Shown piece after piece: positions 9,258-60,165 of a stretch of DNA of 64,000 bases (positions are counted from its first letter, which is position 1; each line of letters begins with the position of its first letter). The DNA lies in NCBI GenBank assembly GCA_964649085.1, contig CAZYPN010000026.1, positions 28,971-92,970 on the forward strand. Direction: 5' to 3'. Source of the DNA: an uncultured Burkholderiales bacterium (GTDB taxonomy: Bacteria > Vulcanimicrobiota > Xenobia > Xenobiales > JADMJV01). A program made the translations under genes and the position numbers. Below the pieces are notes generated by a model, which worked only from the letters and a program-made list of their open reading frames with translations, was not told where the DNA came from and made no database searches.

Positions 9258-9421
9258 GGTTTGCTCTCCTGGATGTTTTGTCTGTAGGGACCAGCTTACA
9301 CGGCAATCCTGAAAAAGCTCTCAAGGGCACACTCCAAGGGGGGGGCAAACCAGGCAGGATGCTCAAATTGTTTCCAGAATGTAACCAAAGTTACAGACAA
9401 ATGAACTGGGGGGTGGGCAAC

Positions 9422-25721: not shown

Positions 25722-25752
25722 GAGCTCGACCCATCCGGGTCGGGCTCTTTTC
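25722..25752 (+). terminator. Putative rho-independent terminator (11-bp stem with one mismatch, 4-nt loop, TTTT)
   Basis: gagctcgaccc-atcc-gggtcgggctc followed by ttttc, immediately after the LysM-P60 stop. Confidence 0.45.
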
Positions 25753-30024: not shown

Positions 30025-30090
30025 GTTCCAACCCCCTTTGGGGGTAGCTACGCCTTTCACGGCTTGTCTCCTACGGGTATAATCAACCCC

Positions 30091-45319: not shown

Positions 45320-46597
45320 TTAGAAGCGCTGGCGGCCCAGAACTTCAATGTGGGCGGGTCCACTGTGGGCTCCGATACCCATCAGCGAGGTGTCGAAGTG
45401 AAAACCGGCCCCCTGTAAGGTCAATTTGCGGTTGGTGGCCACCGCTCCGAACAGGCCTTGAGTTTGACTGCCGGTAATCGTGACATCAGCCCGAGGGGCA
45501 ACGACCGTGCAGTAAGATTCCGAGCCGCCATAGAGCCCGACCGTGCCGGTGCCATCAAAACAGATCTTGAACTTCTTGGGGTCGCGGGTCGAGTTCAAAA
45601 TGGTGTCCGAAGCGAGCAGGTTGAGCGAGTTTCGCACATAGATCACCACCGACCCCGTGGGGTCGTTGAATCCGATGTCGCCGGCGGTCATCGAGATGCT
45701 GTCAAAAACATACTCTCCGGGTTGCAGTTCGATACGACCCAAGATCACCGACAGGTCCCCGTAGGCGCCGGGGGGCAGGCTGTGGGTGCCCCCCACGTCC
45801 AGCGGTCCGCTCCAGGGAAACGACTGGGGGGTTAGAGTCGGCACGGTGAAGGTGGGACAGGGCATGGGTTCGGGCAGAGTGCTGATGCTGCCCTGCACAC
45901 TGCCCGGGTCCCATAGCAGATCGGAGCCGCCCCCGGGGCCGACGCGTACATTGCCCTTGATGTCCCCCATATAGTTGCCGATGGCTTTCAAGGGGAAGGG
46001 GTTGGTGGCCCGGTTGGTGGCCACCACGTCGGCCCCTGCCACCAGTGTGGCCGGACCATAGGGCCCCGCCCCCGAGTCGTAAGCGTCAATGGTTGGGGGG
46101 TCGGCGCCGATGCCGATGGGCGGCACCACCATGTGGAAGCTGTCGGCCAGCGCGCCTACCCGAAAATCGCCGTTGAGTCGCTGGATCAAAGCCCCCACGC
46201 GGCGGCGCGCCAGCACCTTGCCCGAGGCCGATCGGGCCAGTCCGACGGAAAGCACGTACAGGGTGCCCTTGGGAATGGGAAAGTCCAGTTCGGGCACGCT
46301 CAGTTCGCTGGTTCCTCCCACATTGTCAAAAACCGTCACCTCAAAACCGTCGCCTGTCGGGTTGCCGGGCAGCGTTCCCGATGTCACCGAAGGGGGGAGG
46401 GGAGGAGGTGCTTTGCTCAGTTCATTGAGCGCCAGGGTTAAGCCACCCTCGGCCGCAAAGTGGGCCCTTTCACTGGAGAGTTGGCTCACACTTACCTGCA
46501 GTTGATCGGCGCTAAGCCCGATGGCGGCCAGTCCGATCACCGACACCAGGGCCAGAATCAGCAGTACGGGAACGATGGCCAGGCCGCGGCGCCTCAT
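45320..46597 (-). CDS. GspK/PilX-like large pseudopilin-family protein
   Basis: MRRRGLAIVPVLLILALVSVIGLAAIG N-terminus; ATG overlaps the upstream stop (ATGA). Confidence 0.65.
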   Translation of the reverse strand: MRRRGLAIVPVLLILALVSVIGLAAIGLSADQLQVSVSQLSSERAHFAAEGGLTLALNELSKAPPPLPPSVTSGTLPGNPTGDGFEVTVFDNVGGTSELSVPELDFPIPKGTLYVLSVGLARSASGKVLARRRVGALIQRLNGDFRVGALADSFHMVVPPIGIGADPPTIDAYDSGAGPYGPATLVAGADVVATNRATNPFPLKAIGNYMGDIKGNVRVGPGGGSDLLWDPGSVQGSISTLPEPMPCPTFTVPTLTPQSFPWSGPLDVGGTHSLPPGAYGDLSVILGRIELQPGEYVFDSISMTAGDIGFNDPTGSVVIYVRNSLNLLASDTILNSTRDPKKFKICFDGTGTVGLYGGSESYCTVVAPRADVTITGSQTQGLFGAVATNRKLTLQGAGFHFDTSLMGIGAHSGPAHIEVLGRQRF

Positions 46598-47211
46598 CGA
46601 TTGAGCACCGTGATCTGGGTTTCCAGTTCGATGCGCGTGCGGCTGCGACTGGTGATGGGTTCCAGGGCCACCACCCTGACCACGTAGGATCCGGGTAGGG
46701 CGCTGGGTGTCAGGCTCCAGTGTTCGATGTTGCGGGCCAGAACCCGGCGGGCTGGATAGGTCTGCGAGCGAAAGACCGTTAGAGCCGGAGCCGGTCCGGG
46801 CCCCGGCAACAGGTCGACCAGCGGCCCTCCGCTCAGGGCTACCTCCGAGCGAACCAGTTGGCTGCCTGAATCGAGGGAGTAGCAAAGCCACTTCCACCAG
46901 CGCAGTCGGGCGCTGTCCAGGGCGTATTCATAGCCCGATTGCGGAGCCAGCCGCTCGGGAGAAAGGAAGCGCACGGCCCCGGCGCTGATCACCAGGTGCT
47001 CGCGACAGCTGTTGTTCAGGTCGCGCCCCAGTCGGGCCAGCGCCTTCTGCACCTCTTGTTGCCCGCCCTGATAGGACTTCGACTGCTCAAACAGCCTCAA
47101 TCCGGCCAGGGCCAACAGATATAGGATTCCCAGCATGCCGAGCATCACCGTGCTGGAGACCACCACTTCGATCAGGTTGAACCCCCGCCGCCGGCTAATA
47201 GGGCCCCACAC
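46594..47211 (-). CDS. Prepilin-type pseudopilin (GspJ-like)
   Basis: RRRG|FNLIEVVVSSTVMLGML. Confidence 0.65.
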   Translation of the reverse strand: MWGPISRRRGFNLIEVVVSSTVMLGMLGILYLLALAGLRLFEQSKSYQGGQQEVQKALARLGRDLNNSCREHLVISAGAVRFLSPERLAPQSGYEYALDSARLRWWKWLCYSLDSGSQLVRSEVALSGGPLVDLLPGPGPAPALTVFRSQTYPARRVLARNIEHWSLTPSALPGSYVVRVVALEPITSRSRTRIELETQITVLNR

Positions 47212-47614
47212 AGGTCTGCAGGCGCACCTGGTGCTGAGCCCCGCCGGGGTCGGAGGCTCGGAACGGCCACTCCACCGTAACCACCACGTTCTTCACCTGG
47301 TCCGGCGCCCAGGGTTGGCTCACATCAACTCGATAGGTGAAGGTGCGGCTCACGGTGGCCGAGTGCACCTCGACCGAGCGGGTTACCGCCTGGGCCCCAA
47401 TCGGTTGCACGGCGCTGTAGTCCAGCGCTCGCTGGGCCTCCAGCACCTGCCGTGCCAGCGCGTTGGCCTGGGTCAAATCCATGCTCTGGTTCTGACTGCG
47501 CGCCACCGTCACAAACGATCCCAGGGCCAGCAGGGCGATGGTCCCCGTGAGTGCCAGCCCCAACATCAGTTCCAGTAGAAGGCTGACCCCTCCGGCTCGT
47601 TTTCTTCCAGCCAT
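47195..47614 (-). CDS. Prepilin-type pseudopilin (GspH/I-like)
   Basis: KRAGG|VSLLLELMLGLALTG with Glu +5 equivalent; GGAGG 4 nt upstream of the ATG. Confidence 0.65.
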   Translation of the reverse strand: MAGRKRAGGVSLLLELMLGLALTGTIALLALGSFVTVARSQNQSMDLTQANALARQVLEAQRALDYSAVQPIGAQAVTRSVEVHSATVSRTFTYRVDVSQPWAPDQVKNVVVTVEWPFRASDPGGAQHQVRLQTCVGPY

Positions 47615-47807
47615 GAGCCTCCAGTATAGCAGATGGCGAGGGCTATGGCCTTCAGTGTCGGCCCTGTCGCTGCAATGAACGGCGCTCTGGCAATCACAAA
47701 ACTCCTCGAATCGGTCATGGAACGGCAACGCCTTCCCCGGCCAGGTAGCTTTCTGGCAGTACCCGCCACTCTAACCTGAGGCATCACATCTCAGGAGGAC
47801 AAGACCC

Positions 47808-47999
47808 GTGCCCATCGTCAAAGAAAAAGACCCTCTGGTTCGTATGGCCCGGCGCCGAAAGGCGCAGCGCCGCGAGGCCATCAAGCAGATGAGCCTCGAC
47901 TTCGAGGACCGGCTCGAACACAATCGCGCCCTGATGAGCCTCTACCAGCAGCATCAGGCGGCGCTGCGCAGGCTGGGCAGCAGTACATCGGGGGGTTAG
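47808..47999 (+). CDS. Small basic hypothetical protein (63 aa)
   Basis: GTG start with AGGAGG 9 nt upstream; helical Arg/Lys-rich sequence; its 3' end overlaps the stop of the tubulin-like gene convergently. Confidence 0.35.
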   Translation: MPIVKEKDPLVRMARRRKAQRREAIKQMSLDFEDRLEHNRALMSLYQQHQAALRRLGSSTSGG

Positions 48000-50900
48000 C
48001 CCAGCTTCAGGGCCAGTCGCCCGTCCCCACGGGCCTGGCCCAGCTGGTCGCGGGGGCCTTCGATCAGCTGGTTGACTTGCCCGGAAAAGCTGTCTTGGCC
48101 CAGGGCCCGCACCGCCGGGCAATCGAGCACGGCGGCGATTTCGGCTGACAATACGCGCACCGTCATCATTTCTTCGAAGGGAAGCTCGGAGTCGTCGGTC
48201 TTACGGCCCCAGTCTTCGCCCCAGGCCTGGCGTTTCGTCAGCTCTAAAATGCCCGCATAGCGGGTCAGCAGCCCCTCGTCCGAGCTGGCCAGAATTTGCT
48301 GGCGCTGCTCGCGAACCTTGGCATACAGCTTCTCGCGCGTGGGGGCGTGGGTGCTCAGCTTGAGCAGGGTCATAAACTGGTCTCCCAGGGGGTGGGGGCG
48401 CATCTGGAAACCGTCGCGCTCCATCCAGAGATACTCCTGGCCCTTGAATTCCAGAATGTTGAACAGGCTGCCCAATACAAAGCACTGATAGGCCTCCTCC
48501 AGAGCCTGACGCTCTTCCTGGGTGAGGATCATCAGGTCGGGGAAACGCTTGTCGTTGCAGTCGATGTGCAGCGGATCGCCGGCCGTATACAGCTTCAAAT
48601 ACGACTCCCGCAGGTCGGCCAGCCGAGACGAGTAGTTGATCGGAAAGCCTCCGGCCTCCTGATAGAAAATCAGCTCCGAGCTGTCCGGCATGGGGTAGTA
48701 GCGCAGGTCGGTGCTCAATTCGCGACCGGCAATGGTTTTGAGTTGCTGAATATAGCCTTCGAGCTCGCTGCGCTGGGCCGGATCCATGTTGGAAGTGGGT
48801 CCGGGCAGGCCCACCATGATGTGGATCTGTTCCGGCGGAATGCGGAAGGTGCCGTGCACGCCGCTGCGGGTCACCCAGTAGGCCGAGCGGGCGAAGATCT
48901 GCTTGAGGTGGTGCACCCGCGAGGTCTCGTCTACTTGGGAAAAAAGCACCTTGACCACGTGGAAATCTGCCCGCACCCCCAGGAAGCGCTGGCGACACTC
49001 GGCCAGCAGGGCCCGCTTCCACTGGTCCGAGCGGCCCGCCGCCAGATCGACCGAAAGGCCGGTCACCGAGCGTTCCAGCCGGGCCAGCACGGCTTTGGAA
49101 GTTTCTTCGATGACCCCGGGGCGCACATAGGCCGGATAATACTTCTTCTCGACATCGGTGCTCTCGTAGAGCAGCAGCGCCTGGGGCAGCTTCTCCTTTT
49201 GGGAAAAGTAGTTGTAGCCCACCAGCAGGTCCTGCTTCATCTGGGCCAGGTCGCGCTGCAACTGTTCGATTTGCTGGCGAATGCCGCCGCTCAGGCTGCC
49301 GTCGGCGCGCACCTGGCCCGAAAGGGCCGGAATCAGGCGCTTGCAAAACTCGATGGCCTCTTTGTAGAGGCGGTCCTGCAGCAGGCAGCGCAGCAGGCCA
49401 GGGTTGGCTCGGTCGCCCACCAGTGCGTCCAGATAGCGCTCGGTGACGTGCTGCAGAATAATGGCCTTGCGACCGTCCCAGTTCATGCGGCCCTGCTGTC
49501 GGGCTACCTCGGTCAGGCAGCGCTGGGCCTCTTTCTGGCGGCGTTGCAGCTTGTCTTGAAGGTCGCTGGCCTGGCGGGCCATCTGTTCCGACACCTGCTG
49601 CAAAGCCTGGGCCGCTTCTTTGAGTACGGCCTCGGCAAAGCGCAGGCTCTCGTTTTTCTGATCGATCAGCCCGAAAGCCTGATTCTGCAGGCCCTCCTGG
49701 GCTCGCTTCAGCAGCGCTTCCATGTTGGCTCGAATGGTGCGCGGATAGCTGCCCCACTGGTCCGGACTGGTGCCTACCTGCTCGGCCCACATCTGCTTTT
49801 CGGCTTCTTGGTGGGCCCGGTCCAGAAATTCACGCAGGGCCAGGTTTTGCTGGCGATACACCCCGCGCTCGACTTCCATCATGCGCTGTTGCTTCCACTG
49901 GGTCAGTTCGTCAATCAGTCCGCGGCTCTTGCCCTTGTCGGGGTCGCCCAGGCCCTGGGTGTCCAGCAGCGCGTAGAGGATGTCGTGGTTCTTGTCATCC
50001 TCCTGCAGGCGCACTTTGGCCAGCACGTCCTGACGCACAAAGCGGGGCAGGTCGGCGTCGTTGAAGTCGCCGGCCGAAAGGCCTCCCCAGCGGTCGACGA
50101 TCTCCGAGGCCAGGCGGTGGGCGCAGGCCGTGATGATGCGGGCGTGGGGCACCATGATGCTGGCCATGCCCAGTGACCCGTAGCGCTGAATGAAGCGTTG
50201 CTTGAAGCGCGGGTGCTCGTAGTCGAAGGTCTTGTTCATATACTGGCGCAGGTTGATGCGAGCGCTGCGCTTGTGGTCGGCGAATTCGCCGTGGGAGAAG
50301 TCTTTGAAGATCGAGTCGGCCAGCAGCTCAAAGACCAGTTCCTGCGAGTTGGGCTGGCCCCCCGTCACCTGGCCGGCGGCGTTCTGGTTGTCGAACACGT
50401 AGCAGTAGTCAAAGGGCGGAATGGGCACCTTCGACTGGGTGCCCCGGGTCCACTCGGCGTTGAAGTGCGACACCCCATATTGGTAATAGTTCAGCTCCTT
50501 GAGCAGGGCATAAGAATTGGCCTTCATGCGTTCGTTGGTCACGCTGCCAAAGTGGTCGGGAAAGACCAGAAAAGAGGAAACGGTAACGTTGCCTTCCTGA
50601 AACACGTCCTTGACGAGGAAGGCCATGTCCATCAGCATGCCGCTGCCCGTGCCACCGGCGATCGAGGTCACCAGATAGACGTTGGTCGGCTGCTGAAACT
50701 CGACCTGGGCCAGCAACCCCTGGTCTTTGAGCACCGCCGATTTCATCATCGACTCCTGGGCCAGCGGGTCGCGTATGCGCTTGTTGGCGTCTACAATGGC
50801 CGCGCGGATGGCCGTGTAGTGATGAAAGAAGGCCAGACGGCTATAGGCCCGGATCTGTCCGGCCCCCTCGTTCATCTGCCCCAGTGAATTCAGCCCGGGA

Positions 50901-51223
50901 TACCACCACTTGTCGATGTGCTGGAAGTTCGGTTCTTTCAGGTTGGTGGTGATGGCCGTGGTGTCATTGATGGTCATCATCAACCGCTCGGTGTCGGTCA
51001 GGCGCACAAAGTCGCGAATTTCACGCGCCAGGATGTGCTTTTCGCTGCGGTCGGTGTCCATCCACAGATAGCCCACGATGGGAAACTCGGCCAGGCTGCC
51101 GTAGCTTTCGTAGAAACGGCGGCGGATGCGCATCACCACATCGCCGCCGGTGCCGCCCAGACCGATGATCAGGGTGGGACGGATGCGGATTTGCTCGTTT
51201 TTGGCGCCCTGGGTTTCGCTCAA
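47996..51223 (-). CDS. Tubulin/FtsZ-superfamily GTPase-like giant protein (1075 aa): N-terminal tubulin-like domain + long alpha-helical/coiled-coil C-terminal region
   Basis: N-terminal G-box PTLIIGLGGTGGDVV and the tubulin signature loop VTSIAGGTGSGMLMD (GGGTGSG-type); TTG start 12 nt after the upstream membrane-protein gene stop. Confidence 0.75.
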   Translation of the reverse strand: MSETQGAKNEQIRIRPTLIIGLGGTGGDVVMRIRRRFYESYGSLAEFPIVGYLWMDTDRSEKHILAREIRDFVRLTDTERLMMTINDTTAITTNLKEPNFQHIDKWWYPGLNSLGQMNEGAGQIRAYSRLAFFHHYTAIRAAIVDANKRIRDPLAQESMMKSAVLKDQGLLAQVEFQQPTNVYLVTSIAGGTGSGMLMDMAFLVKDVFQEGNVTVSSFLVFPDHFGSVTNERMKANSYALLKELNYYQYGVSHFNAEWTRGTQSKVPIPPFDYCYVFDNQNAAGQVTGGQPNSQELVFELLADSIFKDFSHGEFADHKRSARINLRQYMNKTFDYEHPRFKQRFIQRYGSLGMASIMVPHARIITACAHRLASEIVDRWGGLSAGDFNDADLPRFVRQDVLAKVRLQEDDKNHDILYALLDTQGLGDPDKGKSRGLIDELTQWKQQRMMEVERGVYRQQNLALREFLDRAHQEAEKQMWAEQVGTSPDQWGSYPRTIRANMEALLKRAQEGLQNQAFGLIDQKNESLRFAEAVLKEAAQALQQVSEQMARQASDLQDKLQRRQKEAQRCLTEVARQQGRMNWDGRKAIILQHVTERYLDALVGDRANPGLLRCLLQDRLYKEAIEFCKRLIPALSGQVRADGSLSGGIRQQIEQLQRDLAQMKQDLLVGYNYFSQKEKLPQALLLYESTDVEKKYYPAYVRPGVIEETSKAVLARLERSVTGLSVDLAAGRSDQWKRALLAECRQRFLGVRADFHVVKVLFSQVDETSRVHHLKQIFARSAYWVTRSGVHGTFRIPPEQIHIMVGLPGPTSNMDPAQRSELEGYIQQLKTIAGRELSTDLRYYPMPDSSELIFYQEAGGFPINYSSRLADLRESYLKLYTAGDPLHIDCNDKRFPDLMILTQEERQALEEAYQCFVLGSLFNILEFKGQEYLWMERDGFQMRPHPLGDQFMTLLKLSTHAPTREKLYAKVREQRQQILASSDEGLLTRYAGILELTKRQAWGEDWGRKTDDSELPFEEMMTVRVLSAEIAAVLDCPAVRALGQDSFSGQVNQLIEGPRDQLGQARGDGRLALKLG

Positions 51224-51235
51224 GGAATTCGGTTC

Positions 51236-51994
51236 CTAACTTCGGGTAAGGACGTAGCCAAGTCCAAAGATGCCCAGCACCACCACCAGATAGCCAGCGG
51301 GCACCAGGACGTAAATCCAGTAGAGCTTGTCCCAGACAATGATGGGGAAGAACACCATGGCGGCGGTGGCCAGGGCGGTCAGGCACCAGCTCAGCAATAC
51401 CAGCACATTGGACCAGCCTAGCGCGCTACCCACTGCCATGCGACGATGGCGAAGCATACGCGCAAACAGGCTTCGCCCGAACAGCATGTAGGTCGTAAAC
51501 AGACTACCCAGCGTGAAGCCCAGGATGATGGCCATTTCCACCTTGCTGTGGGGAGCCCTCAGCTCATCGGCTTTGACATCGCCCCGGGTGCTCTCGGTGC
51601 CGATGTGCCAGATGGCCGGCGACAGAGAATGCACCGTATTGTCCTGGATCAGGGTCAGCTCATAGTCTACGGGGCTTTTGTCTTCCTCGAAGACGACGAA
51701 CTGCACCTTGGCCACCCCGTCTTGTACAGGAAATTTGACGTATTCCTGAGTTTGACGAGCATACTCGATGCCTGCGCAGGCCAGGGTCTCGTGGTTGGCC
51801 ACCAGTTTGTTACCCTGCTTTTCATCCTGAGCCAGACGCACCCCAACCCAGGCCGTATTCTGTTCCACCAGGTAGGGCCGCTCAAAGCGGTCATTCACCT
51901 GAACTTCAATGGGAATCAGGCGGAATTTGGGCGGGTCGGCTCCCGCCAGTACCGAGAGAGCCACCGTCAAAAAGACAAGAATGCGCCACCACAC
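51236..51994 (-). CDS. Membrane protein: signal peptide, about 150-aa extracytoplasmic domain, three C-terminal TM helices
   Basis: MWWRILVFLTVALSVLAGA signal; C-terminal hydrophobic helices; 12 nt upstream of the tubulin-like gene. Confidence 0.6.
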   Translation of the reverse strand: MWWRILVFLTVALSVLAGADPPKFRLIPIEVQVNDRFERPYLVEQNTAWVGVRLAQDEKQGNKLVANHETLACAGIEYARQTQEYVKFPVQDGVAKVQFVVFEEDKSPVDYELTLIQDNTVHSLSPAIWHIGTESTRGDVKADELRAPHSKVEMAIILGFTLGSLFTTYMLFGRSLFARMLRHRRMAVGSALGWSNVLVLLSWCLTALATAAMVFFPIIVWDKLYWIYVLVPAGYLVVVLGIFGLGYVLTRS

Positions 51995-52028
51995 GCGGGC
52001 CTGTTCTTGCTCGACGGGGCCCTCCCCT

Positions 52029-53198
52029 CTACTGAACCGTGAAGTAGGTTTGGCTGGCTCGCTTCATCGGTTGATCCTCGGAATCCACCGGAATCACGCG
52101 CCAATAGTACTGTCCGGGAGCCAGGGGTTGGTGATTGGCTGGATAGACCACCTGGGTCTCGCGGGTCAGCGTGGTGAAGCGATTGTCATTGGCGTTCTCG
52201 TCGCTGGAAATCATCACCACGTAGCCGGCCGCTCCCTCGACACCCTTCCAACTGAAGCTGGGTCGGTTGGGCATCGGGCCCGCGCCGTGTGCCCCGTCAG
52301 GCACCAGTTGAGTGGGAAAGTCGGGTTCTTTGGGCTTGTTGTTGCGGGGGATCGACACTCCGAAAGGACCGGGAATGCGAGAATTGATCTGAGACTCAGC
52401 ATAGCTGATGGCTGTGTTCTCCGGGTCGGTGACCAGGTTGGCCCCCAACGAGGCATAGCTCAGGCCCGTATAGACATTGCCCGGAAGATAGGCCCCGGCC
52501 CCGAACATGTTGGCCACAGACATGGCCTGGTTCAAATAGCTCCAGGCCTCATTGAAGGTGCTGCGCAACTTGGTTTCACGAAATTCTTCGACGTTTTCGT
52601 AGGTCTTCACCACCGGGGCCGACTTAAAGTCTGTTTTGAACTGTTCTCCGGGCTTCACCAGTCCGACCACTTTGCCCGAGTTGTCGCGAACTTCTACGCC
52701 GCCCTGTTCGCTGTTGCTCTCAAAGCAACACACCTCCGAGGAGCCGCCCACCTCTTCCACGGTGAACTCGGTGCCCTTGATACCCATGACCCCGCCCGAG
52801 GTCTGGATTTCCATCGGTTGTTTCAGAGTTTTGGCGTCGGCTTTGACCCACATCGCACCGCTCTTCAAAATCACCCTTTTTACGCTGGTCTTGCCGTCGG
52901 CCACCGACTTTTCATCGACGATGACGATATCGGTGTTTTTGTTGATGCTCACCTTGCCGCCGATCAAAAACTCCAGCGCGGCCACCGTATTGGCGTCGGT
53001 GATGAAGTGGTCTTTCGGGTAGCCGGCCGCGTTGACCGACACGGCAAAGGGCTGCTCGGTGGGTCGCTGGCGCTGCAGCACGGGGGTCGAGCCCTCTTTG
53101 GCTGGCTTGATGCTCTGCACCCGTACCACGGCTTCTTCGGCCAGGGCGGCACCCATCATTACCAGAGTTAGAGCGAGAATGGTCGCATTTTTCTTCAT
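52029..53198 (-). CDS. Secreted FecR-domain protein, paralogue of 28984..30024 (shares the C-terminal Y-x-W-R-x-x-P-V-D-S motif domain)
   Basis: Signal peptide MKKNATILALTLVMMGAALA; VKADAKTLKQPMEIQTSGGVMGIKGTEFTV FecR-like; GGGAG SD; the longer track ORF to 53531 lacks an RBS. Confidence 0.7.
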   Translation of the reverse strand: MKKNATILALTLVMMGAALAEEAVVRVQSIKPAKEGSTPVLQRQRPTEQPFAVSVNAAGYPKDHFITDANTVAALEFLIGGKVSINKNTDIVIVDEKSVADGKTSVKRVILKSGAMWVKADAKTLKQPMEIQTSGGVMGIKGTEFTVEEVGGSSEVCCFESNSEQGGVEVRDNSGKVVGLVKPGEQFKTDFKSAPVVKTYENVEEFRETKLRSTFNEAWSYLNQAMSVANMFGAGAYLPGNVYTGLSYASLGANLVTDPENTAISYAESQINSRIPGPFGVSIPRNNKPKEPDFPTQLVPDGAHGAGPMPNRPSFSWKGVEGAAGYVVMISSDENANDNRFTTLTRETQVVYPANHQPLAPGQYYWRVIPVDSEDQPMKRASQTYFTVQ

Positions 53199-53283
53199 AG
53201 CTGTCTCCCCGTATGGATTTGCCCCGCCACTTTCCCCCCCCGGCGCGGGGAATCCTTGGGTCGCAGTCGGCCCCGCTTTCTTC

Positions 53284-53535
53284 CCGCTCAGACCCAGGTG
53301 CGATCTGGACCTGCTCCAGGGTGACGGCCTCGATACGCATCCCATAAGCCTGCACGGGGTCATCGAAGCGGCGGCTGGCAACTTGCTCTCGGCTGGAGTC
53401 GATCCCAATGGCGGATTCCAAGAAGTTGGCGGCGGACATCCGAAGAATTTCCCACCCTTCCATGGGTCTGGCCAGCGCCTCAGCCTCTGGCTCAGCCCGA
53501 AGAATGGCGAGCACAGCGGAGGTATCCACAATCAC
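53284..53535 (-). pseudogene. VapC (PIN-domain toxin) N-terminal remnant, with a degenerate 25-36-codon vapB-like upstream ORF ending in a GTGA overlap
   Basis: Translation starts VIVDTSAVLAILRAEPEAEA...SAANFLESAIG...GMRIEAVTLEQVQIA (classic VapC N-terminal half); similarity ends abruptly near a G8 homopolymer and the frame runs into the FecR gene. Confidence 0.5.
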
Positions 53536-53684
53536 CTGGGGAGTCCTCGCTCGTCATAGAGGAAATCACCGTGTTCGATGGCCAGAGTGGCCGCTATACC
53601 AATTCTCAAAAGTTCTGTCTTGATTGGCCGCCTTGTGACCCGACTTTATCAGGGCTTGTGCGGACAAACCTTACGAGAATTTGT

Positions 53685-55481
53685 CTAGCGCTTCTTCTTG
53701 GGAGGCGTCTTCTTCTTAGGAATCTTCACCAGGTTGACGGCTTTGGTGTGTTCCCCACCGGGTTCGATCGTCACCTGGACAGCCTGAGGTTTGAAGCCAT
53801 CGGCGGCCACCATCAGTTTGTGCTTGCCCGGCCACAGAGGGATCGGCTCGCCTTTGCTGTATTCGATGCGTTTTTTTCCATCGATGCGAACGGCCACCTT
53901 GGCGGGTTTACACTCCAAAACCAGCGTTCCCGCTCGTAAGAACTTCCAATATGCGCCCCCCAGGCCCAGGCCGACCAACAACAGTAACAACCATTTCCAC
54001 GGAAAGCGTCGTTCCGGCTCGAGCATCAGCGGGACGGGAATGGTCTTCGGGCGATCGTCCACCAGCACGGGGCCACGATTCAAGACCGCTTTGCGGGGCG
54101 GGGGGGGCGGCGGCGGGGGGGGCTCCGGCTCGGGCTCCGGCTCCGGTTGGGGCTCCGGCTGGGCTTCCGCGGGCGGCAGCTCCAGCGAGGGTTCCACCAC
54201 CACTTCGGGCACTGCAAATTCTGGGCCCGAGTCGTATTGCCACACTCCGTCGCCGCCTTCTACCCAGTGATTGCGGTCGTGCAGTTGAGAACCCGAGTGC
54301 GCGCAGATGCGCAGCCGCCCGGGAGGGCAGTTTTGCAAAATGGAATAGCCGATGTCCACCGTCGGACAGGCCAGGTTGTCCAATTTGGGTCGACGCATAT
54401 AGCTTACCGGGTCGGGCTCGATCTCGCCCGTGACCACCACCAGGCGGATTTGGTCCGAGGGGTCCTCGCCGCGGCGCAGTGACAGGGCGCATTCAAGAGC
54501 CGGCTGGAGCTCGGTAAATACCAGCAGCGCCACCTCGTCCAGCCATTGATGATGCTGCGGCCGATGAGCGAGCAGCGCCTGCTCGACTCGTGGTAGGCCC
54601 TCTGATTCCGCCGGAGCAGAGACCATCAAGATCGAGTATTCTCGGCCCGATTCAAAGCTTTCTGTAATCTCGGGGGAGGGAGCCGGCTCGGCCTCGCTCA
54701 TCAAAATGAAGCTCAGTTCGCGAGACAGGCCCGAGCAGGTGGCGCGGGTGCTCGGGTCTCGCGATAGGCCTTTAAGAACGGCTTCGCTCAGGCCCTCGGG
54801 CAAGGCCGGCAGCGGTGCCACCGCCTGGTTGCGGATCGCCTCTTCGGTGGCCTGCGTGCCCGAGCGCAGGAAAGGATGGGCTCCGGCCAGCAGTTCATAG
54901 AGCATCAAGGCACAGGCATAGCTGTCGCCCTTGGGGTCGCCCGGGCCGCGGGGCAACAGTTCCGGCGCACAGTAGGCCAGTGATTCTGGGGTGGGCTCTT
55001 CGTCGGCGGGTATGAGTTGAGCCAGCGCAAAATCGGTGACCACCACCTGCTGCTCCTGGTCGACCATCAGGTTCGCGGGTTTCAAATTGCCGTGGCTCAC
55101 ACCGTGGTCGTGAGCCATCTGCAGGGCTTTGAGGGCCGAGTTCACCCATTCACAGGCCTGAGCCCAGGGAAGTCCGCCGGCTTGCAGCTTCTGCGAGAGG
55201 GGAGCGCCCTCCAGGAATTCTGTTACGATGAAGTGGTGCCCCTTATCGCTGCCCTGGTCGACCACTTCGACGAGGTTGCGGTGTGACAGATTTCCCAGCA
55301 CGTCCACATCGCGCGAAAACCGCTCGAGGCGAGACTCGTCGCGGCACAGCTCGGGGCGCAACACCTTCATCACCAGTTTGCGGTCCGAGTCAAAACGGCT
55401 CACCTGATAGACCACGCCGTGGGGGCCTTCACCCACTTTGCGCTCGAGGAGATAAGCTCCAATTCGATCCGGCACCACCAT
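53685..55481 (-). CDS. Ser/Thr protein kinase with C-terminal TM segment and PEGA domain
   Basis: Kinase subdomains: GxGxxG-like VGEGPHGVVY, VMK, HGNLKPANL, DFALA, APE; C-terminal PEGA-like VAVRIDGKKR...GKHKL. Confidence 0.85.
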   Translation of the reverse strand: MVVPDRIGAYLLERKVGEGPHGVVYQVSRFDSDRKLVMKVLRPELCRDESRLERFSRDVDVLGNLSHRNLVEVVDQGSDKGHHFIVTEFLEGAPLSQKLQAGGLPWAQACEWVNSALKALQMAHDHGVSHGNLKPANLMVDQEQQVVVTDFALAQLIPADEEPTPESLAYCAPELLPRGPGDPKGDSYACALMLYELLAGAHPFLRSGTQATEEAIRNQAVAPLPALPEGLSEAVLKGLSRDPSTRATCSGLSRELSFILMSEAEPAPSPEITESFESGREYSILMVSAPAESEGLPRVEQALLAHRPQHHQWLDEVALLVFTELQPALECALSLRRGEDPSDQIRLVVVTGEIEPDPVSYMRRPKLDNLACPTVDIGYSILQNCPPGRLRICAHSGSQLHDRNHWVEGGDGVWQYDSGPEFAVPEVVVEPSLELPPAEAQPEPQPEPEPEPEPPPPPPPPPRKAVLNRGPVLVDDRPKTIPVPLMLEPERRFPWKWLLLLLVGLGLGGAYWKFLRAGTLVLECKPAKVAVRIDGKKRIEYSKGEPIPLWPGKHKLMVAADGFKPQAVQVTIEPGGEHTKAVNLVKIPKKKTPPKKKR

Positions 55482-55602
55482 GCTGGGTCCCTTCCAGCCC
55501 CCTCCCCCAAGCTCCTATATATAGAAGGCAATCAATTCTTTGGGCGCAGGAGTGCCAGCAGCAGCGTCCAACATTCGCTCATCTGGCTGGCTGGGGGCTT
55601 GC

Positions 55603-56244
55603 ATGTTTGACTTCCTGAAGACGATGACGGCACCGCACTTTTCTGTGGTCGATTATGGCGAGGGCCTGGTCTACTTTCGCTGCAGCAAGAAACTCTCGTT
55701 GGCCGAAACAGTAGCTGGCTATGCGGTGCTGCCCGGCGGCGAGAAGCATCCTCTCTGCGTGCAGGTGGTTCAGCGACGCTCCGACGGCATTTACCTGGGC
55801 CGGCCCACCGAGGCCACCCCCGGAGTGGTGGCACTGGAGAAGCATTTCCTGCCCGATGCCTACAAGCCGAAGGAGCAGATGTTCTACAAGATCGACCCCG
55901 AGGAGTCGACCCGGCATCTGCGTACCTACTCGCTGCGTTCCGAGAGCTTTCCCGGCTTCAAGGGCATGACGGCCGAACTCTCCACCGAGGGTTGCAAGGT
56001 TGTGCTCTCGGGCAGCATTCCCGAGGGAACCTCTCTGACCATGTTTCTCGACCTGGCCGACGAGCAGCCGCCCATTCGCATTCTTGGTGAAGTTCAGTGG
56101 TCCAAACAGCGAGACAAGAAGGCCTGGGTGGTGCAGCTCAAGTTCACCGAAATGGATGACGAGCAAAAGAGCTTCATGCGATTCCATCTGGCCGGTCTCA
56201 AGGTCAATCCTCAACTCCATCGCGACGAGCCCGAGCCGAGCTGA
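55603..56244 (+). CDS. PilZ-like c-di-GMP-binding domain protein (tentative)
   Basis: GGGGG SD; C-terminal region with an ELSTEG (D/NxSxxG-like) motif and PilZ-like beta-barrel pattern. Confidence 0.4.
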   Translation: MFDFLKTMTAPHFSVVDYGEGLVYFRCSKKLSLAETVAGYAVLPGGEKHPLCVQVVQRRSDGIYLGRPTEATPGVVALEKHFLPDAYKPKEQMFYKIDPEESTRHLRTYSLRSESFPGFKGMTAELSTEGCKVVLSGSIPEGTSLTMFLDLADEQPPIRILGEVQWSKQRDKKAWVVQLKFTEMDDEQKSFMRFHLAGLKVNPQLHRDEPEPS

Positions 56245-56713
56245 TTCGCTCATAGCGGCAGAAACGGTAGGGCCACTCTTCCCCATCCGGACCCTCTTGA
56301 ACGTCGGCCAGTAGCCATTCCCGAGGGGAGAATTCGGGGTAGTAGCTGTCGCCCTCGGGCTCGGCTTCTACTTCGGTCAGTATCTGACGGTCGCAGTAGG
56401 GCAGCAGCTGTCGGTAGACCTGCTCCCCTCCGATCACCCAGGCCAGCTTTTCGTCCAGGGCCTGTAAGAGTGTCTCTAGCGAGGAAAAGACGCGAACTCC
56501 TGGCAGTTGTAGGCCCACGGTTCGCGACAGCACCCAGTTTTCGCGTTGGGGCAGGGGGCGCCCGATCGAAGCGAAGGTGGTGCGGCCCATAATCACGACA
56601 CCACCGCGAGTGAGTTCGCGAAAGCGGCGCAGGTCGCCCGGCAGGTGCCAGGGCAGACGGCCCCCCACACCGATCACCCGGTTTTTGCCCATGGCGGCAA
56701 TGCTGATCAACAC
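56204..56713 (-). CDS. folA: Dihydrofolate reductase
   Basis: LISIAAMGKNRVIG ... LPWHLPGDLRRFRELT ... VIMGRTTF motifs; GTG start; overlaps the upstream kinase gene stop by 7 nt. Confidence 0.8.
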   Translation of the reverse strand: MLISIAAMGKNRVIGVGGRLPWHLPGDLRRFRELTRGGVVIMGRTTFASIGRPLPQRENWVLSRTVGLQLPGVRVFSSLETLLQALDEKLAWVIGGEQVYRQLLPYCDRQILTEVEAEPEGDSYYPEFSPREWLLADVQEGPDGEEWPYRFCRYERISSARARRDGVED

Positions 56714-59700
56714 GGCCCGGGCTCTTTCGGAAAGCGGGCCGAGGCGCCGGCGGCGGCCAGATAGAGCTGAGCGTTTTGCAAACGGGCCGGATCGGAATCC
56801 AGCTTGCCCAACTCCCACTCCACCAGCCCCTGTTCCAGCAACAGGTCCCAGCGCCGCGACTGCCCCAGGGCCTGGCGCAGCGTTTCTCGGGCCAACGATT
56901 TGCGCTGCAGGCCGGCTCGAAAGCGCAGGGCAGCGCAGCGAAAGGCGGGAAAGATCCCTTCGCTGGCTCTCTCCAGTTCGTCCAGGGCCGTTGGATTGGC
57001 GGGTTCACAAGCGCAGCCAATCAGAGCCGCCTCGGCCTGCTGCAACAGGTCCAGATCCCCCGGCTTTTTCAGCCAGTCCAGGGCGCCCCTCAGCTCCCCC
57101 TTTTGCCAGCAGTTCCAGGCTGCGGCCAGACGTTGTTCAACCCCCAGGTATCCTCCTGAACGGCACTCCAGTGGTTCGTCCACAGGCTGGCCGGCCATCG
57201 CTGCCAGGCGATGGAGATGGGCCTGCAGCACCTGGCTTTCGTAAGAGTTGCGCGATTCTTCCACCAACAGAGACGACTGTGCGAAGGCCTCCTGGCTGCG
57301 AATCAAGCGGCCGCTCAGGCGATGGTAGAGCCCCTTGAGGTTGTAGGCTTGCAGCAGCGACCCCAGATCGCCGATGCGCTCGGCTTGTTGGATCAGCAGT
57401 TCCAGCAGATTGGCAATGTCGGGCTGACCCAGCACCAGCAGTTGATAGCAGGTGTCGAGCAAGAGTTCACAGCGGGTCGAGCCCGAGGGTAGAGCCAGCG
57501 TTTCGTTGACCCCCTGTTCCAGATGGCGGCGGGCTTCGGCAAAGAAATGACGAGGACCCATCAGGTAGATCGAGCCCAACGTCACCTCCAGCTGGGCACG
57601 CTGCACCTGGCGACCACGCTGCCAGCTGCGAGCCAACTGACAGAGCATCAGATACAGTCGATCCAGCTTCCAGCCCGGCGGTCGGAGAAAGAACAGGGCC
57701 CTGTTCAGGCTAACTTCCACCTTGGTGAGCTCGGCCGGTTGAGTTCGCCTTGAAGGTGCGGGCGGCAGGCCCAGCAACATTCCTGCAAAGGACCCCAGCG
57801 TCCACAGCCCGCTGAGCATCGAGTGCGACGGGGGCTTGCGGTTCAATTGCTCCAGCGCCCCTATCAGGCATTGATGGGCACCTTCCAAATCGCCCTGGCG
57901 CCAAAGGCAACGCCCCGCCTTCCGCAGCAGGCGAGGTTTGACGGCTCGCGCGGCCAGCTGCTCGTACAGCGTCTGGGCTTCTGCATAGGCGTGACTGCCC
58001 AGCAGCGCGTCTGCCAGGCTCTCAAGTTGGGCCGGTTGTAGTTCTCCCGCGGCCTGGCGCAGTTGACCGAACAGCGAGGCTGCCTTGCGGAAATTGCAGG
58101 CCCGCAAATGAATCTGTGCCGCCATTTCTAACCAGCGACAGGCTCGTCCCCCAGCCTGGGCCTGCAGCCAATGGTAAGCGATGCGCTCGGGCTGTCCTCC
58201 TTTACGTTCCAGAGCCAGGGCCAACTGGGTGTGCCAGCCGTTGAGGCTGGCCTGTGGCAGGTGGCTTTCCAGAAACACCCGCAGATGCTGAGGCATTTCG
58301 TAGTTGGCTCCGCGTTCCTCGCGCAGCAACTGGCGCCGAACCAGCGTGTCGAGCCCCAGCAGCAGCGGTTGAGGCGGCTCGGCCGTGGCGTGAAACAGAT
58401 CGTCGAACGAGATGCGCCCCCGGGCACAGGCCGTCAGGAACAGTAGCTCGATCTCCAGGGGAGTCAGGTTGGAGATGCGCTTTTGCAGTACCTCGTGCAG
58501 GCTGCCGCTGTGGGGGTCGCGCGTGGTCAATCGTCCTTCCGGACTGCGGCACAGGCGGTCTTCCTCCCACAGCAGTTTGACCATTTCGGCCACTGCCAGG
58601 GGGTTGCCCTGGCTTTCATCATACAGTCGCTGGGCCAGGCCCTCGTCCAGGGAGGCGCCCAACATGGAGCTGGCCAACTCGCGCACCTGCTCGGCGTTGA
58701 GGGGGTCGGCTTCGACCAGCCGTCCGGGCAGGCCCAAGGACCACCAGGAGCGGCTATCGGCGCTGACCAGCATGGACGGAGCCCCTGCTTGATGCGAGAG
58801 GTATCGCAGCAGTTCCAGTTCGTCGTCGGCCAGCAGATCCACATCGTCGAGAATAATCATCCCCCCGCACATGGTGGTGCGCAGCACCGCCAGCACGGCC
58901 GCAAACAGCGAGGCACGGTCATTGGCCTCGGCGCTGCCCAGTTCGGGCAGCAAGGTGGCCAGGGCGGGGCGAAAATGCTCCAACGACCGGGGCAGTTCGT
59001 TCACCAAGAGCTTCTTCAGCAGGTCCACCCAGATTTCAAAGGGGTCCCCGCTCTGGGTGCCAGCCCGTAGCCGATGAATGCCTTCTCGCTGTTCCGACTT
59101 CAGCCGGTAGCGCCGTTCCAGTTCATCCAGAATGCGCGAGCGTCCGGCTCCCGCCGAGCCCACGATAGCGACCAGATGACAACCTCCCTGCAGCGCTTCT
59201 GTCACCTCGTTGAGCAGGCGTTCCCGCCCCACCAGGCGTGGGGCCAGCAGGTTCGGCACCACCGCCTGCAGGCCACGCGGTGATTTCTGCAGTTGGAACA
59301 TCTCCCGCCAGCGCTGCAGAGCCACCTGGGCAGAGCTGGGGCGATCCTGAGGATCCTTGCTTAGCAAATGGCCGATGAACTCCCCCAGGCCCTCGGGCAG
59401 TTCACCCAGAGGTGTAAAGGGTGCCGGCGGCTGGGTGAGCAGGCTCTGCAGCAGTTGCATGAGCTGGCTTTGAGGGAAGGGTAGCTGACCGCTGAACATC
59501 AAGTACATCAAGACGCCCAGGCTATAGAGGTCGCTGCGGGCGTCCAGTTCACAGTCTTGTAGCTGTTCGGGGGCCATGAAGTGTGGGGTTCCCACCAGGG
59601 TGCCAGGGTCGGTCAGGCGCGTCACCTGAGTGGCGCCGGCCAGCCCCAGGTCCAGCAATTTGGTGGTGCCCTGGTCGCTTATCAAGATATTCTCGGGCTT

Positions 59701-60120
59701 CAGGTCGCGATGGATGATGCCCAGGTGGTGCAGGTGCTCCAGTCCTTCGAGCAGCGAAGCGAAGATTTGAGCCAGATGACCCACCCAGGCGGGCCAGGGC
59801 AAGGTGGTCCGCATGCGTTGGGAAAAGTTGTCTAACGTTTCCCCCCTCACCAATTCCATGGTGTAGTACGTCAATCCAGGCTCTTCGTGATAGTCATAGA
59901 CGTCTACGAACAGGGGGTGATCGACCAGTTTTCGGGCCAGATGATATTCTCGGGCAAAGCGAGCCCGTTCCAGCGGGGCGACCAGGGCGGGATGCAGCCG
60001 CTTCAGGGCGCGAAGTTCCCAGGTGGGCAGGTGGCGAACCTCGTAGACCGAGCCCATGCCACCACGGCCGAGGACCCCAACGAATCGATGGTCAGGGATG
60101 CGGGTTGACCAACTGTCCAC
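56707..60120 (-). CDS. Ser/Thr protein kinase fused to a STAND/AAA (NB-ARC-like) ATPase and a long TPR-like helical repeat region (1137 aa)
   Basis: LGRGGMGSVYEV, HRDLKPENIL, DLGLA, APE; Walker A VAIVGSAGAGRS; GTG start at 60120 with GGAAGGA SD (the track ORF start at 60339 would overlap the divergent gene). Confidence 0.8.
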   Translation of the reverse strand: MDSWSTRIPDHRFVGVLGRGGMGSVYEVRHLPTWELRALKRLHPALVAPLERARFAREYHLARKLVDHPLFVDVYDYHEEPGLTYYTMELVRGETLDNFSQRMRTTLPWPAWVGHLAQIFASLLEGLEHLHHLGIIHRDLKPENILISDQGTTKLLDLGLAGATQVTRLTDPGTLVGTPHFMAPEQLQDCELDARSDLYSLGVLMYLMFSGQLPFPQSQLMQLLQSLLTQPPAPFTPLGELPEGLGEFIGHLLSKDPQDRPSSAQVALQRWREMFQLQKSPRGLQAVVPNLLAPRLVGRERLLNEVTEALQGGCHLVAIVGSAGAGRSRILDELERRYRLKSEQREGIHRLRAGTQSGDPFEIWVDLLKKLLVNELPRSLEHFRPALATLLPELGSAEANDRASLFAAVLAVLRTTMCGGMIILDDVDLLADDELELLRYLSHQAGAPSMLVSADSRSWWSLGLPGRLVEADPLNAEQVRELASSMLGASLDEGLAQRLYDESQGNPLAVAEMVKLLWEEDRLCRSPEGRLTTRDPHSGSLHEVLQKRISNLTPLEIELLFLTACARGRISFDDLFHATAEPPQPLLLGLDTLVRRQLLREERGANYEMPQHLRVFLESHLPQASLNGWHTQLALALERKGGQPERIAYHWLQAQAGGRACRWLEMAAQIHLRACNFRKAASLFGQLRQAAGELQPAQLESLADALLGSHAYAEAQTLYEQLAARAVKPRLLRKAGRCLWRQGDLEGAHQCLIGALEQLNRKPPSHSMLSGLWTLGSFAGMLLGLPPAPSRRTQPAELTKVEVSLNRALFFLRPPGWKLDRLYLMLCQLARSWQRGRQVQRAQLEVTLGSIYLMGPRHFFAEARRHLEQGVNETLALPSGSTRCELLLDTCYQLLVLGQPDIANLLELLIQQAERIGDLGSLLQAYNLKGLYHRLSGRLIRSQEAFAQSSLLVEESRNSYESQVLQAHLHRLAAMAGQPVDEPLECRSGGYLGVEQRLAAAWNCWQKGELRGALDWLKKPGDLDLLQQAEAALIGCACEPANPTALDELERASEGIFPAFRCAALRFRAGLQRKSLARETLRQALGQSRRWDLLLEQGLVEWELGKLDSDPARLQNAQLYLAAAGASARFPKEPGPC

Positions 60121-60165
60121 CCCGCATCCTTCCCAGTGCGAACGGCTTCCTCCTATGGGGGTCAG

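Follow-up and report, generated by a model that had tools for sequence, protein, structure and literature searches.

Do three consecutive genes in the window analysed here (a stretch of 64,000 nucleotides) encode a single system, with a secreted FecR-domain protein as sensor, a membrane protein as adaptor and a long tubulin-like protein as polymerising GTPase, or is the conserved unit smaller than this string? The sensor-adaptor-GTPase reading arose in a preliminary description from a single-genome view. Our comparison of related loci points, with a probability of about 75%, to a conserved two-gene, membrane-associated FtsZl1 module on the chromosome of a member of the Eremiobacterota (class Xenobia), composed of the genes at 51236-51994 and 47996-51223. 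The elements first recognised at this locus are all present on the minus strand, namely the 1075-aa ORF with its TTG start and its two GTPase motifs, the FecR domain, and the short intergenic gaps of 34 nt (from the stop of the FecR-domain gene, hereafter FecR389, to the start of the 252-aa ORF) and 12 nt (from the stop of the 252-aa ORF to the TTG of the tubulin-like gene). The features of the locus are:

52029-53198, minus strand: secreted FecR-domain protein (PF04773) with a C-terminal Ig-like domain, 389 aa, starting MKKNATILALTLVMMGAALA
51236-51994, minus strand: conserved partner membrane protein, 252 aa, with a signal peptide and three TM helices
47996-51223, minus strand: FtsZl1/Tubulin_2 family protein, 1075 aa, TTG start (ORF and translation, PF13809)
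50024-51181, minus strand: predicted tubulin/FtsZ two-domain core of the 1075-aa protein (aa ~15-400)
48884-50023, minus strand: long helical bundle/coiled-coil region of the 1075-aa protein (aa ~400-780)
47999-48883, minus strand: conserved C-terminal alpha/beta and helical domain of the 1075-aa protein (aa ~780-1075)

The tubulin-like protein and its family

The 1075-aa protein contains the T1 motif GLGGTGG (aa 21-27) and the T4 motif AGGTGSG (aa 189-195), accompanied in the tubulin-like core by DTD (56-58), a T3-like EGAGQ (119-123) and the T6-like residues D278/N281. These GTPase motifs are not due to chance since the protein matches the complete Pfam profile PF13809 (Tubulin_2; profile positions 1-356 of 356, aa 18-377) with an E-value of 4.3e-69 (233.9 bits, gathering cut-off 27), a result that, together with the AlphaFold model, substantiates the initial assignment to the tubulin/FtsZ GTPase fold with a long non-canonical extension. 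By contrast, the match to PF00091 (Tubulin), the other profile put forward at the outset, reaches 26.4 bits, below the cut-off of 33, and covers aa 181-235 only. The protein is therefore a member of the already catalogued FtsZl1 family, not a new kind of tubulin, and the novelty initially attributed to it does not hold: Makarova & Koonin described the family in 2010, together with its architecture and the Ser/Thr kinases and lineage-specific membrane proteins associated with it (PMC2875224). They reported proteins of ~1050 aa with a tubulin core, a long helical region and a C-terminal domain, encoded in operons with a vWA protein, often a GTPase, an OmpA-like protein or a Ser/Thr kinase, and lineage-specific membrane proteins, the partner families being designated A1-A2 and B1-B9 (PMC2875224). 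Neither the phylum Eremiobacterota/Xenobia nor the Acidobacteriota clade is present in the supplementary files of that study, where a search for 'Acidobacteria' returned nothing. More than 1000 full-length homologues of the 1075-aa protein exist, already named 'tubulin-like domain-containing protein' by NCBI, and the whole FtsZl1 family comprises 4169 representative clusters (E<=1e-3). No vWA, GTPase or OmpA genes were found among the window ORFs scanned, these operon partners being an association rather than a strict requirement of the family. Canonical FtsZ acting in cell division could be ruled out by the sub-threshold PF00091 score, the lack of FtsZ_C and the lack of a division (dcw) context; the Pfam scan detected neither FtsZ_C nor Tubulin_C in the 1075-aa protein, and its gene is surrounded by kinase, FecR and pseudopilin-like genes.

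Across 102 homologues, the GTP-binding loops vary little or not at all, with G21, G23, G24, G26 and G190-G195 strictly conserved. The C-terminal domain also contains invariant (Y875 and H886) and near-invariant positions (E850, F853, Y854, E856, G859, P861, F894, and D896). The AlphaFold2 model (pLDDT 90.4, pTM 0.78) places the tubulin core up to ~aa 400, followed by long helices (400-780) and, at the C-terminus, a mix of alpha/beta structure and helices. Both domains of the tubulin/FtsZ fold are found in it, and the model thus indicates a complete two-domain tubulin core with conserved nucleotide-binding loops, something that the sequence analysis of 2010 could not establish. The extension had been correctly perceived from the outset, although the core ends at ~aa 400 and not at 300, and what had been described as a ~800-aa coiled coil, helical indeed in part, is instead a bundle/coiled coil of ~380 aa followed by ~300 aa of mixed alpha/beta structure and helices. 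Hydropathy analysis identified no hydrophobic segments, and the protein is cytoplasmic. In addition to the extension of ~680 aa, the protein has family-specific inserts at aa ~83-124 and 253-267. Beyond helix H5 lies a candidate counterpart of the FtsZ GTPase-activating domain with its catalytic T7 residue, for which D308, kept in at least 90% of the homologues, is the candidate acidic position, placed from sequence order only. An hhalign comparison of the family profile with E. coli FtsZ aligned only S4-T4-H4-S5, with a probability of 6%, and was useless for placing T6, T7 and the C-terminal domain. A profile search of PDB sequences with the 102-sequence alignment retrieved helical matches that were all spurious, and no relative of the FtsZl1 protein with a solved structure.

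A constant membrane partner

The 252-aa protein encoded immediately upstream has a signal peptide (aa 1-19), a periplasmic nine-strand beta-sandwich (24-142) and three TM helices (151-183, 188-219, and 227-249), the signal peptide and helices deriving from hydropathy analysis and an AlphaFold2 model (pLDDT 87.6) that bear out the topology first proposed. The gene caller placed the start 14 codons later in contigs of 98% identity, giving a protein of 238 aa; we prefer the longer form because it is needed for the signal peptide present in all homologues. The best-conserved stretch in the alignment is the cytoplasmic TM1-TM2 turn (FGRxLFxxLLxxRxxxVxSA). All 35 homologues are annotated as 'hypothetical', and no Pfam domain was detected in any of them or in the 252-aa protein itself. 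Foldseek searches of the partner model against the PDB retrieved only marginal Ig-, CBM20- and pilin-like matches (best E 1.1e-3), from which we draw no functional inference.

In 21 of the 22 informative loci, which come from Xenobia, UBP9 and Acidobacteriota, this partner gene immediately precedes the tubulin-like gene, so that the membrane-protein part of the three-gene linkage initially supposed is upheld across phyla. An HMM of the TM family matches the window and 21 loci; at all but one of them the match immediately precedes the tubulin-like gene, at a distance of -67 to +115 nt. The contigs carrying TM homologues agree in size with those carrying tubulin-like homologues. One Xenobia relative (L003, 53% identity) has no upstream partner and has an Hsp70-like gene downstream instead. 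In another locus (L085) the pair stands alone, since the gene that follows upstream is transcribed in the other direction. The pair is kept across the whole class in unrelated chromosomal contexts, and in Acidobacteriota relatives it occurs inside a larger operon with genes for vWA, Hsp70-like, GrpE-like and zinc-ribbon/beta-propeller proteins. When the window is compared with its relatives L001, L002 and L004, the tubulin-like protein is 85% identical and its TM partner 67%, versus 52% and 38% for the neighbouring genes, showing that purifying selection acts far more strongly on the tubulin-like protein than on its neighbours. Two Ser/Thr kinases are encoded upstream in the window, and the preliminary description had counted a Ser/Thr kinase as a feature of the neighbourhood; kinases of this type belong to some published FtsZl1 loci, but they are absent beside the 87%, 85% and 71% identical orthologues and were discarded as a component of the system in this clade. 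Searches of the 80 related loci with orf177, the PilX-like protein and the wrong-strand ORF orf235 (tblastn and phmmer) gave nothing, and scanning the window for Rfam families and tRNAs returned no hits.

The FecR neighbour and competing explanations

FecR389 has a single N-terminal hydrophobic segment and a FecR domain at aa 67-161 (PF04773, E 8e-10), its Ig-like match being weak. A three-component signalling cytoskeleton, in which this secreted protein detects an extracytoplasmic cue that the 3-TM protein passes on to a tubulin-like GTPase polymerising in response, would be consistent with the three genes lying on one strand with no convincing terminator in the 34-nt and 12-nt gaps, with the conservation of their order in strains of 98% identity and with a periplasmic location of both FecR389 and the beta-sandwich of the TM protein. 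However, it is only in those strains that FecR389 accompanies the pair: homologues were found at none of the 80 related loci (tblastn E<=1e-3; phmmer E<=10), and FecR genes are missing at every other locus examined, including those of the tubulin-like orthologues at 87%, 85%, 71% and 63% identity and the pairs of L084-L086. Moreover, the closest homologues of FecR389 (50-56% identity) belong to other Xenobia, where they open FecR-FecR-cyclase-CHASE2 operons; an operon of this type is also present in the window, 22 kb away, and its FecR is 26% identical to FecR389. The FecR flank has also been recently rearranged, as seen from a truncated PIN remnant and an indel of ~380 nt relative to a relative with 91% nucleotide identity. 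The role of FecR as extracytoplasmic sensor had been made dependent on conserved linkage, and by this criterion of its own the signalling model is largely refuted and very improbable. FecR389 is a species-specific neighbour outside the conserved module, and nothing suggests that it is a functional component of the pair. It may be co-transcribed with the pair in the source species, given that the 34-nt FecR-TM gap has no convincing terminator; the consensus scan of 47000-54000 for promoters and terminators stayed at background level and says nothing on operon boundaries.

Two other explanations retain the pair and assign it a different role. It could be a stripped-down biological-conflict module (anti-phage or abortive) in which FtsZl1-type tubulins act as multimerising effectors, as Kaur, Burroughs, Iyer & Aravind (2020) placed proteins that combine a tubulin domain with a coiled coil, as well as vWA, HSP70 and GrpE, in predicted conflict systems and proposed multimerising tubulin effectors for the GAP1-N2 DO-GTPase systems of Firmicutes and Actinobacteria (PMC7159879). 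The combination of vWA, Hsp70-like and GrpE-like genes with the pair in acidobacterial relatives, the flanks that differ between strains (including the PIN remnant and the kinase genes) and a STAND-like kinase-AAA_16-TPR gene 5.5 kb upstream fit this idea. Nevertheless, the published systems come from Firmicutes and Actinobacteria, PADLOC matched none of the three genes (only the upstream kinases, with generic kinase models), among the neighbours scanned (Pfam, NCBIfam) we saw neither a DO-GTPase or other P-loop GTPase gene nor GAP1, and conservation well above that of the neighbours (85% versus 38-52%) together with class-wide retention in unrelated contexts is atypical for arms-race genes. 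Such constraint speaks for a core function in the cell and against a fast-evolving one in defence, making the conflict module unlikely. We consider only slightly less doubtful that the tubulin-like domain is a non-polymerising GTP switch that, with partners of chaperone type, assembles or maintains a protein complex of the envelope; the Hsp70-like, GrpE-like and vWA partners of its relatives are of chaperone/co-chaperone types, and hhalign could align only the S4-T5 segment to FtsZ.

Our preferred reading, the membrane-associated FtsZl1 module, would operate as follows. The tubulin-like head would bind GTP and self-associate on the cytoplasmic face of the membrane, and the helical and C-terminal regions would dock the protein onto the partner's short conserved cytoplasmic turn, either by direct contact or through intermediaries; the beta-sandwich of the partner would extend into the periplasm. 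Because of this periplasmic reach, the pair may constitute a membrane-attached GTP-dependent scaffold, in keeping with the 'membrane remodelling' that FtsZl1 operons have been proposed to perform. We infer GTP hydrolysis, polymerisation and membrane association for the FtsZl1 protein; direct binding between both proteins is uncertain since the partner exposes only few residues to the cytoplasm. Xenobia would have kept the minimal pair and Acidobacteriota relatives the pair within a larger operon. FecR389 is a paralogue of the FecR genes that usually accompany CHASE2 cyclases and came to lie beside the pair in the source species only. A bolder version of this idea, which we regard as quite unlikely, holds that the signal-peptide/beta-sandwich/3-TM protein and FtsZl1 form a previously undescribed minimal trans-membrane coupling module of Xenobia, UBP9, Acidobacteriota and perhaps Poribacteria, in which the periplasmic Ig-like domain would report on, or anchor to, the envelope and control the assembly of a complete, though highly divergent, tubulin-fold polymer on the inner membrane face, with FecR recruited as an extra input in one species.

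Among the large branches of the tubulin/FtsZ superfamily, FtsZl1 is the most divergent, with ~4,200 representative clusters. Our literature searches on FtsZl1/Tubulin_2 yielded comparative-genomic papers only, and a minimal, tractable version is useful because the searchable literature holds no experimental characterisation. One constant, unannotated membrane partner within a clade of three phyla offers a concrete two-protein system for reconstitution.

Comparison with known systems

Like the proteins of FecR/CHASE2-cyclase operons, FecR389 carries PF04773, but here it is detached from any cyclase. It also differs from FecR anti-sigma factors, which combine a cytoplasmic anti-sigma domain at the N-terminus with a TM segment, in having a cleavable-type signal peptide. 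FecR-type anti-sigma or ferric-citrate signalling was ruled out by its domain content, limited to FecR and the weak Ig-like match, a score of 15.8 bits against the NCBIfam FecR equivalog (cut-off 385) and the lack of any adjoining gene for an ECF sigma factor or a TonB-dependent receptor. The 1075-aa protein shares only 11-17% identity with CetZ, TubZ, FtsZ and tubulin, the PF00091 families with solved structures, and, in contrast with FtsZ and TubZ, its gene is located outside any cell-division or plasmid-partition context.

As in the GAP1-N2 DO-GTPase systems, the tubulin domain is fused to a C-terminal coiled-coil/alpha-helical region; those systems also include vWA proteins associated with the membrane and, as an alternative theme, HSP70 and GrpE, and the acidobacterial relatives combine all of them. 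Unlike in those systems, neither DO-GTPase nor GAP1 genes turned up at this locus or at the related loci annotated. To our knowledge no Pfam model exists for GAP1, which is judged absent only because the operon contains no candidate ORF for it.

The closest resemblance is with FtsZl1 itself, with which the protein shares an N-terminal GTP-binding domain bearing a GGGTGS/TG-type signature, a helical/coiled-coil stretch, an alpha-helical C-terminus and a total length of ~1050 aa, as well as a gene adjoining that of a lineage-specific membrane protein and, in some cases, those of Ser/Thr kinases, and same-clade relatives in vWA operons. It differs from the published FtsZl1 systems in that its tubulin core appears complete, with both domains, in the AlphaFold model, a point beyond the reach of the sequence methods of 2010, and in that the operon here consists only of the tubulin-like gene and one membrane partner.

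The tubulin-like protein: genes, family and predicted fold

The window is a chromosomal stretch of class Xenobia (Eremiobacterota) in which housekeeping genes such as MoeA, thiolase, Rex-like and DHFR surround a string of three consecutive ORFs, separated by 34 nt and then 12 nt:

52029-53198, minus: FecR389, a secreted FecR-domain protein of 389 aa; ORF, start MKKNATILALTLVMMGAALA
51236-51994, minus: TM partner, a membrane protein of 252 aa; ORF
47996-51223, minus: tubulin-like protein of 1075 aa; ORF, TTG start

ORF calls and hydropathy reproduced the features listed in the preliminary description. The tubulin-like protein carries the motifs GLGGTGG (residues 21-27) and AGGTGSG (residues 189-195) and has no hydrophobic or membrane segment by hydropathy, the TM partner has a signal-like segment at its N-terminus and three TM segments at its C-terminus, and FecR389 has a single, N-terminal hydrophobic segment.

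The Pfam profile Tubulin_2 (PF13809) matches residues 18-377 of the large protein over its entire length (1-356 of 356; 233.9 bits, cut-off 27; E = 4.3e-69), confirming the proposed tubulin/FtsZ relationship. The classical Tubulin/FtsZ profile (PF00091) also matches near the AGGTGSG loop, at 26.4 bits and hence under its cut-off of 33, and none of the NCBIfam and PADLOC models matched. The protein almost certainly belongs to the FtsZ-like 1 (FtsZl1)/Tubulin_2 family. A database search retrieved more than 1000 full-length homologues (~1070-1130 aa) which, where named by their source, are mostly "tubulin-like doman-containing protein" (source spelling) and in a few cases plain "hypothetical protein". 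The closest belong to Vulcanimicrobiota, Candidatus Xenobia and Eremiobacterota, followed by Acidobacteriota (~33% identity across ~95% of the length). When 1.84 billion cluster representatives were scanned exhaustively with phmmer, 4169 passed E ≤ 1e-3, of which 1756 also passed E ≤ 1e-10 and 284 passed E ≤ 1e-30.

An AlphaFold2 model built from a 102-sequence alignment (mean pLDDT 90.4, pTM 0.78) matched the tubulin/FtsZ fold, with which Foldseek was in accord (probability 1.0).

Structural matches of the large protein model (score; aligned residues)
CetZ 3zid_B: 24.7; 312/342
CetZ2 4b45: 22.9; 298/334
Phage TubZ 4xcq: 21.5; 277/303
Asgard, alpha-, gamma- and Odin-tubulins, BtubA: 19.4-20.6; 314-330
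FtsZ 2vaw: 19.9; 270/315

Because ~90% of CetZ was aligned, residues ~15-400 of the model appear to contain both tubulin/FtsZ domains, beyond the nucleotide-binding half. Conserved among the 102 homologues are T1 (G21-G27), T4 (G190-G195), a DTD motif (56-58) that we read as the counterpart of the NTD motif in FtsZ, a T3-like EGAGQ (119-123), the T6-like D278 and N281 following a strand, and D308, a candidate T7 residue sited between two helices; alignment to FtsZ supports the S4-T4-H4-S5 correspondence only, the remaining loops being assigned by order and conservation. Model and alignment point to a head that has the whole tubulin fold and whose nucleotide loops are conserved.

The membrane partner and its neighbourhood

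We compared 80 genomic loci encoding relatives of the tubulin-like protein by ORF calling, BLAST clustering of neighbours and searches with the window's proteins. The TM partner family HMM matches in 21 of them and in the window, always immediately upstream of the tubulin-like gene and in the same orientation, the gap being -67 to +115 nt in every locus but one. These loci span Xenobia/Vulcanimicrobiota, the UBP9 lineage and Acidobacteriota (Blastocatellia, Pyrinomonadaceae, Chloracidobacterium, Acidobacteriaceae and Bryobacteraceae). Within this clade the TM partner lies upstream in 21 of 22 informative loci (L006, whose upstream sequence is too short to judge, was left out), which upholds the claimed linkage of the GTPase to a membrane protein. 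The sole exception, a Xenobia relative with 53% identity (L003, 1093-7740), has an alcohol dehydrogenase gene at the expected place and an Hsp70-like gene directly downstream of the tubulin-like gene.

All members of the TM partner family share a signal peptide, a beta-rich region of ~130 aa and three TM helices, and the alignment is most strongly conserved in the cytoplasmic TM1-TM2 turn. The AlphaFold model (pLDDT 87.6) consists of a nine-strand beta-sandwich and a three-helix bundle, with marginal Ig/CBM20/pilin-like fold matches only. All 35 homologues detected are labelled "hypothetical", none with a Pfam domain, and their contigs match in size those of the tubulin-like homologues. The protein is a dedicated membrane partner bearing a periplasmic domain, and we consider it probable (roughly 0.8) that it is functionally paired with the tubulin-like protein. 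A Poribacteria contig (L035) carries, 13 nt upstream of an FtsZl1 gene, an ORF of 120 aa (17-379) that runs off the contig edge and matches the TM partner HMM weakly (E = 4e-4); the family may reach past the three phyla.

In Acidobacteriota and UBP9 a vWA protein gene precedes the pair, accompanied in Acidobacteriota also by zinc-ribbon/PQQ-propeller and GrpE-like proteins and by a ~1100-aa Hsp70-like protein with an Ig-like domain, encoded upstream or directly downstream. Larger operons that join Hsp70-like, GrpE-like, zinc-ribbon/PQQ-propeller and vWA genes to the pair occur in the acidobacterial and UBP9 versions, in L010 (574-13228) and likewise in L016, L020, L018, L037 and L014. A further FtsZl1 paralogue type in Eremiobacterota, only distantly related (26-27% identity, 979 aa), lacks the TM partner and is followed by a classical vWA-domain gene (L033, 9953-14154; L036; L048), and the FtsZl1 genes of Ignavibacteria and Microcystis have housekeeping surroundings and no obvious partner.

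FecR389 and the variable flanks

FecR389 has no match in the 80 related loci, by tblastn (E ≤ 1e-3) or phmmer (E ≤ 10), and the kinase-FecR-TM-tubulin order is kept only in 98%-identical strains. Conserved linkage with the tubulin-like gene holds for the TM partner and fails for FecR389. In L084 (87% orthologue) and in L085 and L086 (71% orthologue) the pair stands alone in unrelated surroundings, the gene next upstream in L085 being on the opposite strand; in L001 and L004 (85% orthologues) the place upstream is taken by an ABC transporter gene and an ORF of 153 aa. Where their source is named, the 107 FecR389 homologues come from Eremiobacterota or Armatimonadota, and the best ones outside the strains (50-56% identity) are first genes of FecR-FecR-cyclase-CHASE2/cyclase operons in other Xenobia. 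The window has an operon of this type as well (25751-30258, minus strand), whose FecR is 26% identical to FecR389. Further features of the window are:

9278-11281, plus: pseudopilin-like gene, N_methyl prepilin-motif protein
25751-28984, minus: 1077-aa CHASE2 + adenylate/guanylate cyclase gene, overlapping the next by 1 nt
28984-30258, minus: FecR-domain gene of the same operon (PF04773, E = 4.6e-10)
45320-46897, minus: pseudopilin-like gene, PilX_N + DUF7305, weak GspK match
52912-53535 (informative ~53290-53535), minus: truncated PIN-domain (VapC-like) ORF (Pfam PIN, E = 5.6e-6, profile 1-80 of 120)
55540-56244, plus: PilZ-domain gene, between two kinase genes
56204-56818, minus: DHFR gene, between the same kinase genes
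56707-60339, minus: 1210-aa Ser/Thr kinase + AAA_16 (STAND-like) NTPase + TPR repeats

The PIN remnant lies between a 598-aa kinase gene and FecR389, in ~380 nt that are extra in the window and missing from L081 and L082 (91% nucleotide identity), suggesting recent rearrangement of the FecR flank. Immediately after the tubulin-like gene, the 98%-identical strains differ from the window (47644-47999) by an insertion of ~3.5 kb (L081, 11232-14760; L083, 5902-9430), which holds two small ORFs and the gene of a 321-aa Ser/Thr kinase. The two-gene module is strain-variable on both flanks. Only the 98%-identical strains share the 1210-aa kinase gene, which sits two or three genes upstream of the three-ORF string. 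A 235-aa minus-strand ORF (55579-56286) is probably no gene but a shadow ORF of the PilZ gene. The pseudopilin-like genes suggest that the genome has type II secretion or type IV pilus-like systems.

Possible function and relation to known systems

The tubulin-like head would bind GTP and self-associate at the inner membrane face, its helical and C-terminal parts connecting it to the short cytoplasmic turn of the TM partner, directly or, where present, via vWA, Hsp70-like and GrpE-like proteins, and the beta-sandwich would tie the assembly to the periplasm or envelope. We hold this polymer-at-membrane mechanism tentatively, at slightly under even odds.

Among the alternatives, a GTP switch that does not polymerise and works with chaperone partners is unlikely. 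Makarova and Koonin (2010) regarded filament formation by FtsZl1 as uncertain, since T6-H7 and the C-terminal domain were not alignable (PMC2875224). An effector role in conflict systems seems a shade less likely still. Kaur et al. (2020) placed tubulin-plus-coiled-coil, vWA, HSP70 and GrpE proteins in conflict systems of the GAP1-N2 DO-GTPase type predicted in Firmicutes and Actinobacteria (PMC7159879). However, across its full 1075 residues the tubulin-like protein of the window shares 85% identity with its counterparts in L001/L002/L004, as against 67% for the TM partner and 52% and 38% for the next conserved neighbours, a poor fit to an arms-race effector; such strong constraint suits a protein with a core role in the cell and many surfaces under constraint. 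Least credible is a FecR sensor acting through a membrane adaptor on a polymerising GTPase: its link between GTPase and membrane protein survives, whereas its sensor, FecR389, has no counterpart in the related loci and is not counted as a component.

The preliminary description also erred in regarding the system as of a kind not described, because the family is published: FtsZl1 then counted 121 members, in predicted operons with vWA proteins, Ser/Thr kinases, a divergent GTPase, OmpA-like and lineage-specific membrane proteins, and was proposed to act in membrane remodelling (PMC2875224), and Santana-Molina et al. (2023) took Tubulin_2 to be this "FtsZ-like" group, which served them as an outgroup (PMC9871819). 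We found no experimental study of FtsZl1/Tubulin_2 in the literature searched. The vWA, Hsp70-like and GrpE-like neighbours link the clade to the published vWA/FtsZl1 and tubulin/HSP70/GrpE themes. The locus is a member, from a little-studied phylum, of this known, uncharacterised family; its constant TM partner, which is lineage-specific, seems to have no separate description. What is new beside these systems is the minimal two-gene module and the model's indication of a full tubulin core.
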